A model generated the notes under the pieces. That model saw nothing but the letters and a program-made list of their open reading frames with translations, did not search any database and was not told the DNA's origin. The translations under genes were made by a program, and so were the position numbers. From an uncultured Gemmatimonadales bacterium (lineage in GTDB: Bacteria > Pseudomonadota > Gammaproteobacteria > Pseudomonadales > IMCC2047), in assembly GCA_964195105.1 (NCBI GenBank), contig CAXMOT010000106.1, positions 1-58,042 of the forward strand: a stretch of 58,042 nucleotides of DNA, in the 5' to 3' direction. How positions within the stretch are numbered: position 1 is the first letter of the stretch; the number at the start of each line of letters is the position of its first letter. Below are positions 8,025 to 50,501 of this stretch, one piece after another.

Positions 8025-10796
8025 ATGATATCAACGATTAAAACCAGGTGTTTCATCGCCTGGCTCGTGATTTTCCTGAACCTGTCGCAGGTAATGGCAG
8101 ATGAACGGCCGCGCGAGTTTGATATCCCGTCCCAGGCGCTTGACGTTGCCTTGTTGATATTTTCGATCCAGGCTGACCTGGATGTCGTTGGCATGACTAC
8201 GGCTCTGCGTCCGCTTGTATCACCCGAACTGCACGGCTCCTATACCAACATCCAGGCCCTCGAAATATTGCTCGCAGACAGCGGGCTTGAATATCGCTTT
8301 TCCGGGCCGCAGCAAATCGCTATTTTTGTACCCGAAGTCGTCACCCCGGAGATTGTCGAACAGCCGGAATCGATTCCGTTTCTGGAAGAGGTAATTGTGC
8401 GTGCGACTCGACGTCCAACCAACCTGCAGGATACCCCTATCTCGGTTACCGCGTTCAGCCAGGCTCAGTTGGATCGGAATCTGGTGAAAGATTTACGAGA
8501 TATCACGGATATGGTACCGAGCCTGGAATTGACTAATAGCGGGTCCCAGTCGGCAGTACTAGTGCAGTTGCGGGGTGTCGGCTCGACTAATATTACCGAG
8601 ATTGCCGATGGGCCGGTGGCAATACACGTCGATGGCGTATATTCGCCAAGATCACAGGGCGCGGCAGCATTACTCTATGATGTCGAACATGTGGAGGTAT
8701 TACGAGGACCGCAAGGCACCTTATTCGGGCGTAATTCTTCGGCGGGAAGCATTAACATATACAACAATATGCCGCAGCTTGACGCCTTCTCAGCAGCGTT
8801 AAACGCCAATCTCGGCGACTTCGATCACAGGTCAATTCGAGGCTCAGTAAATCTCCCATTCGACGACCAGTTTGCCCTTCGCATAGCCGGCGCGCTTGAC
8901 AGGCATGATGGTTATACCGAGCTATTGGATAACTATGTGGGGCTGGGGCCGCAATACCCGGCTATTGGTGATCAACTAACGGATTATCAACAGGCCCTGG
9001 ACGTTAACAATCAGGGTCCGGAGGCAAACGACCAGACGGGTGTTCGTGTGACCGCATTATGGCAACCCTTTGACCAGCTGCGGATTCACACGACAGCAGA
9101 GCGATATATCGACAAAAGCACCAGCGTGGTAGAGCTCGATCCGACGCTCGTGGAGCGTGGGCAACGAGCGACGGTTTTGGATAGCCCGGTGTTTATGGAT
9201 TTAACCAATGATGTGCTGAGAACGCAGGTTGATTATCTGGCCACTAACGGAGTTGGGTTTCGTTATCTGCTTGGCGTATCTGAAATGAGTCGCAGCCAAT
9301 CCTTTGATGCTGACTTTGGTCGGGATGGCAGCTTTGAACAACAGCGCACCCATAGCTCGGAATTCGATTTTTATTCCCATGAAATCCAGCTCCGCAGCAG
9401 GGATAATGCGCGCTTGACCTGGATCGTAGGCGGTTATGCTTCCCGGGAAAGAAACCGGATTGTATTCGCGGTCGACCAACAGAATACCGGTGGAAACCGA
9501 TCGCCGGAAGGCGCGACGAGTTTTATCAGCGACGATCCGGGAGCGGCGGTTTCGTTTGCAGTACAACCCGATCGCCGGGTGGATTCGCTCGGCATTTTTG
9601 CGCAGTCGATATACGCGATAAACGACCGCAGCCGCGCGACACTGGGTATAAGGTATACCGAGGATACTAAATCTGATCGAGGCGGCCGGGCATTAAATTG
9701 CAGGGTTACGTCCGTTCTTGGGCCCTATCTCGAACCGGGTTCGATTGGTCCGGGAGCCCCGGATCCAGACCAGGTTTTTGCCGACGCAGGCGCTAGCGCC
9801 GCGATTGCAGCGGGATTGCCCTATGATGGTGGTACCAATGAGGGGATTGGAGACCAACCGTGCTGGGCACGTCAGGTGAATGATTTTAAGAAGACCTGGG
9901 ACAACACCAGCGGCCTGATTCGTTATGACATGGACCTGGGCAAGGATGCAATGTTTTATGCGTCACTGGCTACGGGTTTTAAGTCAGGTCATATACAAGA
10001 TGCGGGCAACTCAGCAGACCCGGAGACTGTTATTAACTACGAACTGGGCCTTAAGTCGCAATTGTTTGAAAATACTATGCGTTTTAATTTGGCGGCGTAT
10101 CACGCGGACTATGATGACTTGCAGTTTTCCCAAGAGGATAGATTCGACACTGACGGCGACGGGATAGGGGACCAGGGCGGTAGTACTGTGGTACGCAACG
10201 CCAGCAAAGCGACAATCAGGGGGCTGGAACTGGAGCTTGAATGGGCCATGACCGAGCGTGACCGGTTGCAGGTAGTGGGAACACTAATGGCAGCGGAATT
10301 TGATGATTTCGAAATACCTGATACGGTTTTCGGGGACTTGTTTAATCCCTTTGTTTCGCCCGAGTCTTCATCGAACCTGGACCCTGTGGATTTGTCAGGT
10401 AATGCTCCGCCCAGAACACCTGATTGGAAGTTTACATTTTCCTATGAACATGATTTTGTGTTTTCTTCGCTAACGCTAACGCCACGAGCGCGAGTCACCT
10501 TCTCCGACGAGTACTTTCTGGATATTTATAACCGTACCGATCTGGAAGCTGACGTCTTTGCTGACATTCCTAATGGTGGGCAGGACCTGGCTCTGCAGGA
10601 TTCCTACCATACCCTGGACCTGAGTCTGCGGCTCACACCACGATCCAGGCGCTGGCTATTGGAGGGTTATATCAGCAACGCCACGGATGAAACGGTTAAG
10701 GAATCTTCGGGCAACTTTGTTACCGAGAATGGTTTCGTGGCGGTTTATTCCCCACCTCGGCGGATGGGATTGAAACTCAGCTACCGTACGCCCTAG
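8025..10796 (+). CDS. TonB-dependent receptor with N-terminal STN signalling domain (TonB-dependent transducer)
   Basis: Signal peptide from ATG 8025 (MISTIKTRCFIAWLVIFLNLSQVMA). STN-type extension (FDIPSQALDVALLIFSIQADLDVVG...LEILLADSGLEYRF), plug motifs (EEVIVRATRR...DTPISVT...VEVLRGPQGTLFGRNSSAGSINI) and a long barrel follow. The track ORF begins at an upstream TTG (7974). The C-terminus ends ...LKLSYRTP, and its stop codon lies inside a MITE end. Confidence 0.9.
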   Translation: MISTIKTRCFIAWLVIFLNLSQVMADERPREFDIPSQALDVALLIFSIQADLDVVGMTTALRPLVSPELHGSYTNIQALEILLADSGLEYRFSGPQQIAIFVPEVVTPEIVEQPESIPFLEEVIVRATRRPTNLQDTPISVTAFSQAQLDRNLVKDLRDITDMVPSLELTNSGSQSAVLVQLRGVGSTNITEIADGPVAIHVDGVYSPRSQGAAALLYDVEHVEVLRGPQGTLFGRNSSAGSINIYNNMPQLDAFSAALNANLGDFDHRSIRGSVNLPFDDQFALRIAGALDRHDGYTELLDNYVGLGPQYPAIGDQLTDYQQALDVNNQGPEANDQTGVRVTALWQPFDQLRIHTTAERYIDKSTSVVELDPTLVERGQRATVLDSPVFMDLTNDVLRTQVDYLATNGVGFRYLLGVSEMSRSQSFDADFGRDGSFEQQRTHSSEFDFYSHEIQLRSRDNARLTWIVGGYASRERNRIVFAVDQQNTGGNRSPEGATSFISDDPGAAVSFAVQPDRRVDSLGIFAQSIYAINDRSRATLGIRYTEDTKSDRGGRALNCRVTSVLGPYLEPGSIGPGAPDPDQVFADAGASAAIAAGLPYDGGTNEGIGDQPCWARQVNDFKKTWDNTSGLIRYDMDLGKDAMFYASLATGFKSGHIQDAGNSADPETVINYELGLKSQLFENTMRFNLAAYHADYDDLQFSQEDRFDTDGDGIGDQGGSTVVRNASKATIRGLELELEWAMTERDRLQVVGTLMAAEFDDFEIPDTVFGDLFNPFVSPESSSNLDPVDLSGNAPPRTPDWKFTFSYEHDFVFSSLTLTPRARVTFSDEYFLDIYNRTDLEADVFADIPNGGQDLALQDSYHTLDLSLRLTPRSRRWLLEGYISNATDETVKESSGNFVTENGFVAVYSPPRRMGLKLSYRTP

Positions 10797-10971
10797 GAGC
10801 CTGTCGGGATTAGGTGATCGTAACGAGGGGAAGTCCGATTTGAGGCAGATTATTCGATTATTGAGGCGAATAGCCTGCTATTTAACGAGAATAATCGAAA
10901 AATCTGACCCCCCTCTATCACGAGAGCGGCTTTTCTGCAGTAGATTAACCCTAAATCCGACAGGCTCCCAG
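10793..10971. mobile_element. MITE-like 179-bp palindromic repeat, copy 1
   Basis: About 87% identical by eye to the reverse complement of 50261-50439. Terminal inverted repeats are CTAGGAGCCTGTCGG... at the left and ...CCGACAGGCTCCCAG at the right. The two halves are imperfectly self-complementary along the whole length. No ORF. Confidence 0.8.
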
Positions 10972-14402: not shown

Positions 14403-15548
14403 TTGACAGAAAGTTACGCTATACCCGCCTATACGGTTGTCGAAGAAGATGAATTGCTGGAACTGCTGGTAACCCAGTGGCAAGACCTGCGTGTTATTGC
14501 CCTCGATACCGAGTTTATCCGCACCAATACCTTCTATCCGCGTGCCGGGCTTATTCAGGTCGCGACCGAGGATGCGCGCTTCCTGATCGATCCGCTGGCC
14601 ATTCGTGATGTCGAGCCGCTCAAGGCGCTGCTGCAGAACCCGCAGATTATCAAGGTACTGCACTCCTGTTCAGAAGACCTGGAGATGTTCGACAGCTACC
14701 TGGGCATATTGCCGGAGCCGATTTTCGACACCCAACTCGCCGGAGCCTTCCTGAACCGGGGCTTGTCGGTGAGTTACAAGAATACCGTGCTGGAGATGTT
14801 CGGCGAGGACCTGCCCAAGGGTGAACAACGCTCCGATTGGTTGCAGCGCCCGTTAACCAATAACCAACTCGACTACGCCGTGCTGGACGTTGAATTTCTG
14901 CTCGATATCTATGTAGAGCAGCGCACCGCACTGGAGGAATCCGGCAAGCTGGGCTGGCTTGAAGAGGAATGTAAGCGGTTGCTGGCGAAGCAGCGCGCCG
15001 GCGTGGTGCCCAGCGAGGCCTATGCCCGCGTCAAGTCCGCGTGGCGTCTTAAACCGCAGCAACTCAGCGTGTTACAACGCCTGGCGCAATGGCGTGAACA
15101 GGAGGCGAAGCACAGCGATATGCCGCGAGGATTTCTGTTGCGGGATCCCGCGTTGATGCAGATATCACAGCAGCAGCCGGATTCGATTGCGGACCTGAAA
15201 CTGGTGGAGGGCATTCACCCCAGGATTATTCGCAAATACGGCGACCGGATTTTGAGCCTGGTCGAGCAGGACAATGCTGAAGAACTGTTCAGCGAGCTGC
15301 GTGGTCCCTTATCGCGTTCCCTGGGTGAGCATGTGAAAACCATCAAGAGCTGGATTAACGCACAGGCTGCGAAGATGGATATTTCCCCGGAACTGATGAT
15401 AAATCGCAAGGGTATTGAGACGCTGGTGTATAGCCTGGTTGAATCCGATGAGTTTGAGTTGCCGGCGGACATGAGCCTGTGGAAGCAACAGGCGTTTGGC
15501 AACGAGTTACTCGAACTACTCAACGGCATAAAGGAGCGATTGGTGTAG
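14403..15548 (+). CDS. rnd: ribonuclease D
   Basis: DEDDy 3'-5' exonuclease motifs (IALDTEF...LHSCSEDLE...YAVLDVEFL) followed by an HRDC-like region. TTG start. Confidence 0.9.
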   Translation: MTESYAIPAYTVVEEDELLELLVTQWQDLRVIALDTEFIRTNTFYPRAGLIQVATEDARFLIDPLAIRDVEPLKALLQNPQIIKVLHSCSEDLEMFDSYLGILPEPIFDTQLAGAFLNRGLSVSYKNTVLEMFGEDLPKGEQRSDWLQRPLTNNQLDYAVLDVEFLLDIYVEQRTALEESGKLGWLEEECKRLLAKQRAGVVPSEAYARVKSAWRLKPQQLSVLQRLAQWREQEAKHSDMPRGFLLRDPALMQISQQQPDSIADLKLVEGIHPRIIRKYGDRILSLVEQDNAEELFSELRGPLSRSLGEHVKTIKSWINAQAAKMDISPELMINRKGIETLVYSLVESDEFELPADMSLWKQQAFGNELLELLNGIKERLV

Positions 15549-15803
15549 TATCCTGTATAAAATGCGCATATCAGCAGGTCGTCAAGCGGTTAGCTGGTAG
15601 GCGCGCTTGCGCAGGAATAGTCAACTCTTTCAAGCCGGCGCAACACCGCAGATGACCGCTTGCCGGCCTGCCCGAAGGGAGTCTCTTAAATTTGCCATGG
15701 CGGTGTTGCAGCCCTTGCCAAGGGAGCGACCATTGCCTGCGGACTGCGTCTTGCCATGACAAATTTATGAGACTCTGAAATGCGTATTTTATACAGGACA
15801 CTA
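15549..15803. repeat. structured intergenic element, copy A (candidate ncRNA or structured mobile element)
   Basis: Fills the whole rnd-ycgL spacer. A 24-bp closing helix pairs 15551-15574 with 15775-15798. An inner 22-bp helix pairs 15679-15700 with 15754-15775 and encloses a core (15711-15760) that is 39/47 identical to 39926-39976. Other helices covary with copy B. Confidence 0.8.
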
Positions 15804-15808
15804 CACTC

Positions 15809-39751: not shown

Positions 39752-39755
39752 GGAT

Positions 39756-40024
39756 CTGGTACTCCGTCCCCTTGATACTTGCGGATACAGCGCTGCTGTG
39801 GTGTTTCGAAACAAGGCACAGCGTGCAGGGAATGGTTACCCCCTTCCCAAACGCTGTAACGCAGTGGCGGGACACCACAGCAGCGCCCTGTGGGTTGGCG
39901 TGTCAGCGTCCATGGACAGCGTTGCGTCTCTTGCCAAGGGAACGGCCATTGGCGGCGAACCGCGCCTTGCCATGAACGCTGATGCACCAACTGAATTCGT
40001 AATTATCAAGGGGACGGAGTACTA
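39756..40024. repeat. structured intergenic element, copy B (candidate ncRNA or structured mobile element)
   Basis: A 22-bp closing helix pairs 39756-39777 with 40003-40024 (one G-T pair). Helices 39791-39804/39872-39885, 39850-39857/39916-39923 and 39903-39915/39970-39982 sit in the same topology as in copy A. The core 39926-39976 is shared with copy A. Confidence 0.8.
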
Positions 40025-40025
40025 G

Positions 40026-40059
40026 TATTGAGGTCGAAGGGATCCCTTCGACCTCAATA
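40026..40059. terminator. perfect 34-bp palindrome between convergent genes (terminator-like hairpin)
   Basis: TATTGAGGTCGAAGGGA|TCCCTTCGACCTCAATA, 6 nt past the stop of the minus-strand RRM gene. There is no clear U-tract on either strand. Confidence 0.5.
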
Positions 40060-50233: not shown

Positions 50234-50260
50234 GGGCTGGGCCTGTTGGTAATTTAGGGG

Positions 50261-50439
50261 CTAGGAGACTGTCGGACTTAGGGTTAATCTACTGCGGAAA
50301 AGCCGCTCACGTAATAGAGGGGGTCAGATTTACCGATTATTCTCGTTAAATAGCGGGCTATTCGCCTCAAATAATCGAAAAATCCGCTTCAAATCGATCT
50401 TTCCCTCGCTACGATCACCTAAGTCCGACAGCCTCCCAG
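50261..50439. mobile_element. MITE-like 179-bp palindromic repeat, copy 2 (inverted relative to copy 1)
   Basis: Reverse complement aligns end to end with 10793-10971. It lies 28 nt upstream of the DHA2 MFS start codon and 62 nt downstream of the CoA-transferase stop. Confidence 0.8.
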
Positions 50440-50501
50440 GACCTAGTGTAAAGCCAATCACTCCTGGGAGATAGGCAGAATCGCCGGCCTTGGCGGGCGA
50501 T

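Follow-up and report, generated by a model that had tools for sequence, protein, structure and literature searches.

The stretch of DNA analysed here (58,042 nt, referred to below as the window) contains two copies of a strongly palindromic element, one (copy A) in the spacer between rnd and ycgL and the other (copy B) in the spacer that follows prx. When the whole window was searched for inverted repeats, these two loci were returned as its two longest: in copy A the repeat is 32 nt long (15543-15574 / 15775-15806) and 91% complementary, in copy B it is 35 nt long (39756-39790 / 39991-40025), and the gap between the repeat arms is exactly 200 nt in both. The core sequence that the copies have in common, CTTGCCAAGGGANNNNCCATTG, is present in the window only in these two places. 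The layout is that of a terminal inverted repeat (TIR) of 31 bp, a hairpin module, or arm, of 97, a linker of 7-9, a second, inverted arm of 97 and a second TIR of 31, i.e. 263-265 bp altogether, with the following parts (bit scores are those of R1, a covariance model of one arm with 97 positions):

15543-15806, no strand: copy A, whole element, 264 bp, termini GTGTAG...CTACAC
15543-15574, no strand: copy A, left TIR, the 5' strand of helix P1
15575-15670, minus strand: copy A, left arm, the 97-nt hairpin module inverted and degenerate (39 bits, E 2e-07)
15671-15678, no strand: copy A, linker CCCGAAGG, belonging to a mini-hairpin CCC-GAA-GGG
15679-15775, plus strand: copy A, right arm (99.3 bits, covariation)
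15775-15806, no strand: copy A, right TIR, the 3' strand of P1
39759-40022, no strand: copy B, whole element, 264 bp, termini GTACTCC...GGAGTAC
39759-39789, no strand: copy B, left TIR
39790-39886, minus strand: copy B, left arm, again the 97-nt module in inverted form (73.5 bits, E 6.5e-16)
39887-39893, no strand: copy B, linker CCTGTGG
39894-39991, plus strand: copy B, right arm with loop CTTGCCAAGGGAACGGCCATTGGCGGCG (82.1 bits)
39992-40022, no strand: copy B, right TIR

A first-pass annotation of this DNA had placed the elements at 15549-15803 and 39756-40024, limits that had to be corrected to those given above. For copy A a TA-flanked boundary at 15548-15801 was also considered and dropped, since 15543-15806 gives the canonical length and matches the relatives that end in GTGTAG, termini that copy A has in common with loci L052 and L072. 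With these limits copy A is flanked by the dinucleotides TG (15541-15542) and TC (15807-15808), which we read as degenerate TA, and copy B by C-TG (39756-39758) and TA-G (40023-40025).

Reading the sequence directly, we found all pairings that had been described for copy A at their coordinates. P1 (15551-15574 / 15775-15798) consists of 22 Watson-Crick pairs, one G-T and one A-A, and the inverted-repeat search extends it to 32 nt; P2 (15583-15590 / 15655-15662) is perfect, with 8 of 8 base pairs; and P3 (15679-15700 / 15754-15775) has 20 Watson-Crick pairs among 22, the remainder being one T-T and one C-A. P3 belongs to the right arm, in which a 22-bp outer stem leads to an internal loop (GCGTTGC / GCGTCTTG); beyond this come an inner stem of 6 bp and a 28-nt apical loop, CTTGCCAAGGGAGCGACCATTGCCTGCG. 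Copy B has the same architecture, as had been claimed. Two further features exist in the sequence and have to be understood differently. The stretch 15700-15709 is indeed an exact complement of 15640-15649, which had been taken for a pseudoknot, but it is no independent tertiary contact: the left arm repeats the right arm in inverted orientation, and what pairs here is simply these two arms. The triloop hairpin CCCTT-GCC-AAGGG, likewise, is real in copy A but confined to it, and is not conserved in relatives.

The structure as a whole is far more stable than expected from composition. Compared with dinucleotide-shuffled controls, copy A folds at -123.7 kcal/mol (z -8.7) on the plus strand and -121.7 (z -9.8) on the minus strand, and copy B at -164.7 kcal/mol (z -13.2) and -146.6 (z -10.0), respectively. 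An RNAalifold consensus of 22 diverse family members predicts 94 pairs, 82 of them with compensatory changes, so that the compensation first seen between the two window copies extends to additional ones. For the arm alone, 75% of cells are paired, compared with 36-43% in controls in which the partners were slid by 1-3 columns; its covariation score is 0.625 versus at most 0.22 for slid partners, and none of 500 shuffles reaches the observed score. Together with the fold z-scores, this covariation bears out the view of a conserved, covarying and strongly structured non-coding element.

What is conserved is distributed very unevenly over the element. Covariation is free in the stems of the arms, whereas next to no change is seen in the internal loop or in the 28-nt apical loop, and arms that lay outside the selection made by our search pattern still keep GCGTT, CTTG, AAGGG, CCATT, C(T)GCG and GCCTTG. 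In the subfamilies with TA-GGG... and TTAACC... termini a small hairpin replaces the apex of one arm, and GCGTT(G/A)C and GCCTTG are kept. Model R1, which matches the right arms of both window copies on the plus strand, matches the left arms on the opposite strand, and across 99 loci the arms always form adjacent (-)(+) pairs, none of them with a gene in between.

Scanning one representative genome per species for the core yielded at least 120 matches, of which at least about 90 are true relatives. Among the matches listed, the relatives belong to Gamma- and Betaproteobacteria, with hosts that include Pseudomonas, Aquipseudomonas, Stutzerimonas, Aeromonas, Nitrosomonas, Rhodocyclaceae, Thiobacillus and Methylophilaceae, as well as Thiotrichaceae, Chromatiaceae, Sedimenticola, Thiodiazotropha and others. 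Single metagenome-assembled genomes (MAGs) can carry many copies (at least 10 loci in one from Thiotrichaceae, at least 7 in Nitrosomonas, at least 7 in Chromatiales and at least 6 in another MAG), and many copies are found at true contig ends, as is usual for a repeat that is dispersed. Members of the Pseudomonas/Aeromonas subfamily occupy unrelated, non-orthologous sites. Element length is 263-271 bp across members, being kept within +/-3 bp. Open reading frames that start in the loop have 8-63 codons with no conserved frame among members, in agreement with the absence of a conserved ORF noted earlier, and a coding element can be discarded on the same ground.

Nor does the family correspond to a catalogued RNA. 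Rfam scans of the window at gathering and at permissive thresholds were empty at both copies, and so were scans of 17 family loci at the gathering threshold, in line with the initial statement that no known RNA family is recognisable here; the sole Rfam match in the window is a small SRP RNA (RF00169, 11223-11319, 70 bits). The module had no match in 5,426 E. coli genomes or in phages, and a plasmid collection gave five matches to the family, none of them covered by an annotated feature. We found no description of it in the literature, including a 2024 review of prokaryotic MITEs and the paper on MITEs of Thiomargarita. The 264-bp family is thus a previously undescribed one: a MITE with a deeply conserved, covarying, strand-selected two-hairpin interior.

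That the element is mobile can be seen at its ends. When copies from within one MAG are aligned, similarity stops sharply at CTAG|TACTCC...GGAGTA|CTAG. Among the 105 core matches listed, 75 have detectable TIRs, mostly with TA flanks; by hand tabulation about 40 of 62 insertions have a TA at either end, usually as C-TA...TA-G, and in a table of flanks anchored on the arms c-TA-[G...C]-TA-g is the commonest pattern. Neighbouring tandem copies have the TA between them in common (L043, L048). The termini themselves fall into at least three unrelated types: TA-GT(A/G)..., to which both window copies belong; TA-G(G/A)G(T/C)CTGT..., found in Pseudomonas, Aeromonas and Rhodocyclales; and TA-TTAACCCGGC.... 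The first-pass annotation had argued that terminal arms unique to each copy exclude an ordinary MITE. This does not hold, since TIRs are common to the copies of a subfamily, and the subfamily of each window copy has its TIRs elsewhere too, in multiple copies and in a C-TA...TA-G context.

Empty sites were found for both window copies. The window stems from a Halieaceae-like gammaproteobacterium, its best matches with a name being Congregibacter and Halioglobus. The first-pass annotation had proposed that rnd-ycgL spacers be compared among relatives; two relatives, with YcgL identities of 95% and 81%, do not have the element, and their rnd stop overlaps the start of ycgL (ATGA), which speaks for mobility. 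The stop codon of rnd (TAG, 15546-15548) lies inside copy A and stems from its first bases. As read from the sequence (15546-15548 and 15809), the insertion of copy A changed the C-terminus of RNase D, and rnd and ycgL, translationally coupled in the empty arrangement, now lie 264 nt of strongly folding sequence apart. For copy B, two contigs with a 99% identical peroxiredoxin do not have the 264 bp in the prx-to-terminator spacer, with flanks 96-98% identical. There the empty allele reads TAAGGAT-TTAAA-TATTGAGG, compared with TAAGGAT-C-TG-[264 bp]-TA-G-TATTGAGG in the window.

The exact insertion chemistry is less clear than the fact of insertion. Simple duplication of a TA predicts CTAG at the empty site of copy B, where TTAAA is found (L128 1766-1770, corresponding to 39755-39758 / 40023-40025 in the window), and in copy A taking out one TA would remove the rnd stop codon. 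As TA is self-complementary, the TA at the element ends could belong to the repeat and need not be a duplication. Immediately beyond copy B there is a perfect palindrome of 17+17 nt (40026-40059, TATTGAGGTCGAAGGGA/TCCCTTCGACCTCAATA) in the space that separates prx from a convergent gene for an RRM protein. It is probably a bidirectional terminator; since it is also present in the relatives that do not have the element, it is pre-existing and outside the element, and copy B sits between prx and this hairpin. A 55-nt insert at the copy B site of another locus (L130) is unrelated to the element.

Taken together, it appears probable (we would put it at about 0.8) that both loci are insertions of a TA-flanked MITE that carries a conserved hairpin module and is mobilised in trans by an IS630-like enzyme. 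Several traits of a MITE are observed in this family: a length below about 600 bp, the absence of coding capacity, TIRs, multiple dispersed copies and presence/absence polymorphism. In such a scheme a DDE transposase of the IS630/Tc1-mariner type would move the element in trans by binding its TIRs, inserting it at the TA of CTAG and duplicating that TA; an IS5/IS427-type enzyme would be an alternative mover. IS630 itself is said, after work by Tenzen et al. in 1990, to insert at CTAG with duplication of TA. The C-TA...TA-G pattern of the family flanks fits the IS630 target, but the sites reconstructed in the window (TG/TC and TTAAA) do not fit it cleanly.

A cognate transposase having these TIRs was not found in about 1.5 Mb of DNA at family loci; clustering of the flanking ORFs gave no recurrent neighbouring ORF or protein, and a regular-expression search for the IS630-type motif SPDLNPIE found it neither in any family-locus DNA nor in the window. 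When the Nitrosomonas-type TIR was used against metagenomes, the 120 loci obtained contained no transposase, only two-arm elements, shortened derivatives, micro-palindromes, a 794-bp variant and truncated copies. Several candidate parents or partners were rejected: a GTACTCC...GGAGTAC pair 1.2 kb apart at L073 is a chance match around host genes, a TIR-only match in Aeromonas caviae, next to kbl, is no more than a short remnant, and an IS5-family transposase abutting the right arm in a Ca. Thiodiazotropha MAG (L109 7660-7755, L116 1-175) belongs to a separate IS with its own ends.

The window also contains a second MITE-like family of about 180 bp, at 10793-10971 and 50255-50445 in opposite orientations, with 22-28-nt terminal repeats (TAGGAGCCTGTCGGGATTAGG), C-TA...CA-G flanks and no 97-nt arms; it had no match in the plasmid collection. 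Its terminal repeat TAGGAGCCTGTCGGG matches that of a member of the arm-bearing family, L039 (GGAGCCTGTCGGGCTTA). An armless family with a terminal repeat of this type implies that the arms are probably not required for mobilisation, and the comparison of these sequences suggests that terminal repeats alone determine it, the arms being cargo.

Which strand of the arms is kept folded can be approached through their mismatches. In the outer helix P1 these are balanced (G:T 29 versus A:C 27), as expected of a plain inverted repeat. In the arms, read in the CTTGCCAAGGGA orientation, A:C oppositions outnumber G:T by 94 to 47 (p 9e-5), and still by 31 to 14 after dereplication to <50% stem identity, and among 83 arms the reverse strand is the more stable one in 67 under RNA parameters and in 66 under DNA parameters. 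A C-A opposition that had been noticed in both window copies turned out to be widespread, being present at stem position 16 or 17 in more than half of the arms. Since every element carries one arm per orientation, a strand-specific mutation bias cannot give this asymmetry, which indicates that selection keeps each arm able to fold as a single strand, read 5'->3' inward from the nearer end. With one arm folding per orientation, a good hairpin is present once on each strand of the element. The linker, in many members, has the form C-GNA-G when one strand is read and C(UNCG)G when the other is. As G-T wobbles are tolerated in DNA as well as in RNA, and as the linker has a motif on both strands, the folded strand may be of either chemistry; we lean slightly towards single-stranded DNA (e.g. 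the lagging-strand template) rather than RNA (read-through transcripts).

Proposals about what the arms do go beyond the alignments and are conjectural. The two arms may be conserved cargo or a sub-terminal module, and what reads their 28-nt loop may be a conserved component of the host and not the TIR-binding part of the transposase. A host factor is the more likely reader because the loop is invariant while the TIRs have diverged into at least three unrelated types. The loop might then act in cis on the propagation or persistence of the element itself, and the dyad design would provide one working hairpin whichever strand becomes single-stranded or is transcribed. We lean towards a cis-acting role on single-stranded DNA as first choice, with a role at the RNA level next. 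More speculatively, and we regard this as rather unlikely, the 97-nt hairpin may be a functional module of single-stranded DNA or RNA, one per strand, whose invariant 28-nt loop and internal loop bring in conserved host machinery (candidates would be factors of priming or replication restart, nucleases or ribosome-associated factors) and thereby account for the success of the MITE. If so, a structured-nucleic-acid "passenger" would be common to transposon lineages with unrelated TIRs; alternatively, the hairpin would serve a step in an undescribed TA-targeting transposition pathway.

For an element with massive covariation and invariant loops, one should also consider that it, or its 97-nt hairpin, works as RNA, the MITE being merely its vehicle: as a cis-acting mRNA element (in processing, stability or insulation from read-through) or as a trans-acting or antisense RNA. 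A wobble of the G-U type is favoured on one strand per arm and recurs at a fixed stem position, which would suit RNA, but DNA hairpins, too, tolerate G-T better than any other mismatch. Similarly, the C(UNCG)G form of the linker in many members recalls RNA, but its complement, C-GNA-G, is a DNA mini-hairpin motif. With copy A within the rnd-ycgL unit and copy B between prx and the terminator, both are probably transcribed by read-through, and effects at the RNA level are possible; however, neither copy contains a sigma-70-like promoter or an intrinsic terminator, and the orientation of family members relative to neighbouring genes is random (29:33 upstream and 27:35 downstream, by crude gene calls). 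The whole-element fold energies of copy A are similar on the two strands, and its absence from very close relatives shows that the element has no essential role in the host. We therefore consider an RNA function of this kind unlikely. Of the original proposal of a novel structured RNA the structure is real; what carries it is a mobile DNA element, and nothing shows a discrete RNA gene.

A further alternative, much less probable still, is an element like a REPIN or PATE, moved as single-stranded DNA by an HUH enzyme (RAYT or of the IS200/IS605 TnpA type) that recognises the hairpins. Two inverted hairpin modules, a strand-specific folding signature and the lack of a neighbouring transposase (REPINs, too, have none beside them and depend on a single-copy RAYT) are all features that one would expect of such an element. 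In contrast, 31-bp TIRs with TA flanks in a CTAG context are a hallmark of DDE enzymes (IS630-like), identical TIRs enclose unrelated inner content, loops of 28 nt are unlike those of REP hairpins, and one module extends across many genera whereas each REP family is confined to a lineage. A chance palindrome, a decaying gene fragment or a locus-specific regulatory spacer, which the presence of only two copies in the window and the degeneracy of copy A (left arm 39 bits) might suggest, can practically be dismissed in view of at least about 90 relatives in many taxa, a length constant to within +/-3 bp, covariation that beats controls, the empty sites and the lack of a conserved reading frame. 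Among specific candidates, a retron msr-msd was rejected because the neighbours are rnd/ycgL and prx/RRM genes with no recurrent adjacent ORF, and because the element is multi-copy and TA-flanked; sigma-54 and sigma-70 promoters, IHF sites, attC and the hammerhead were a poor fit by eye.

The closest known systems to a mobilised, TA-flanked MITE of this kind are the MITEs mobilised by IS630/Tc1-mariner enzymes (IS630 itself as regards the target rule, the Stowaway elements of plants as regards the form). Like these, the family described here is non-coding and about 260 bp long, with TIRs, TA on both sides, a preference for CTAG, a high copy number in some genomes, presence/absence polymorphism and a whole element that can fold back. 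Unlike them, its interior consists of two inverted 97-nt hairpins with loops near-invariant across orders, its arms are under strand-specific selection on folding, its TIRs are of at least three unrelated types, and no partner transposase was found at the family loci searched. Correia elements of Neisseria are also bacterial MITEs with TA flanks, TIRs and long hairpins, intergenic and co-transcribed with their neighbours, and we know of no parent transposase for them. They differ from the present family in size (100-155 bp), layout and restriction to one genus, in having a functional promoter and IHF sites, and in having no covarying two-arm module, and there is no sequence similarity between the two.

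Other comparisons concern the hairpins more than the ends. REP/REPIN sequences with their RAYT resemble the family in being inverted hairpin doublets that act as single-stranded DNA and whose enzyme is encoded elsewhere, but they have no long TIRs or TA flanks, their loops are short, and they are lineage-specific. REP hairpins carry a conserved 5' GTAG, and REPs flank the RAYT gene that mobilises them. ERIC/IRU and other enterobacterial intergenic repeats likewise form imperfect palindromes, lie in intergenic DNA that is transcribed and have a predicted RNA structure; their length and architecture differ, and the module is without a match in the E. coli genomes mentioned above. The ssiA/ssiB sites of the IncQ oriV and the n'-sites of ColE1 place one hairpin on each strand, in inverted orientation, where they are read by conserved replication proteins of the host or plasmid. 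They are not known to resemble the arms in sequence and may offer a mechanistic analogy only, as they lie in replication origins and not in a transposon.

The cataloguing of bacterial MITEs is poor, and what lies inside them is usually taken as neutral filler. Here a two-hairpin interior is precisely sized and has near-invariant loops while stems and TIRs turn over, in a family that ranges over Pseudomonas, Aeromonas, Nitrosomonas, Thiotrichales, Chromatiales, Halieaceae and many sediment metagenomes, a pattern implying that, within a selfish element, a folded single strand is under selection. It provides a concrete object, a 97-nt hairpin with a defined strand, for asking which host factor binds and whether structure aids the spread or persistence of a non-autonomous element. 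In practice, the family breaks assemblies at contig ends, alters genes (as with the rnd stop codon and the separation of rnd and ycgL), and is worth masking in intergenic screens for new RNA families.

Some members depart from the standard layout. For one TIR type, the copies in metagenomes mostly enclose 268-271 bp, and there are also derivatives of 61-172 bp and one non-coding variant of 794 bp. At several unrelated metagenome sites (L139, L146, L172, L201, L204, L227 and L231) we observed micro-palindromes of about 34 bp, TA-GTACTCCGTCAAC-GTGATA-TTGACGGAGTAC-TA-G, which consist of the outermost 12-13 nt of both TIRs and are either derivatives that arose by deletion or, possibly, minimal mobile units. 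In one variant (L021 1-260) both arm modules are in direct, i.e. the same, orientation, and in another (L082 2877-3139) both TIRs and the right arm are kept and the left half is unrelated sequence. The TA-GGG... subfamily (L033, L035, L045, L066, L076 and L100) often has CA on the left and TG on the right instead of TA; very-short-patch repair, by converting CTAGG to CCAGG, would give such flanks. The Thiodiazotropha IS5-family element mentioned above (transposase N-terminus MKQATFASLNYSAKKKQTRRERFLQEMEQAVPW, own end GGAAGCTCTGAACG) is inserted exactly at the linker, at CTAG/TTAG, in two different copies of the family (L109 and L116), so that the linker may be a hot spot for IS5, or the composite may itself have moved.
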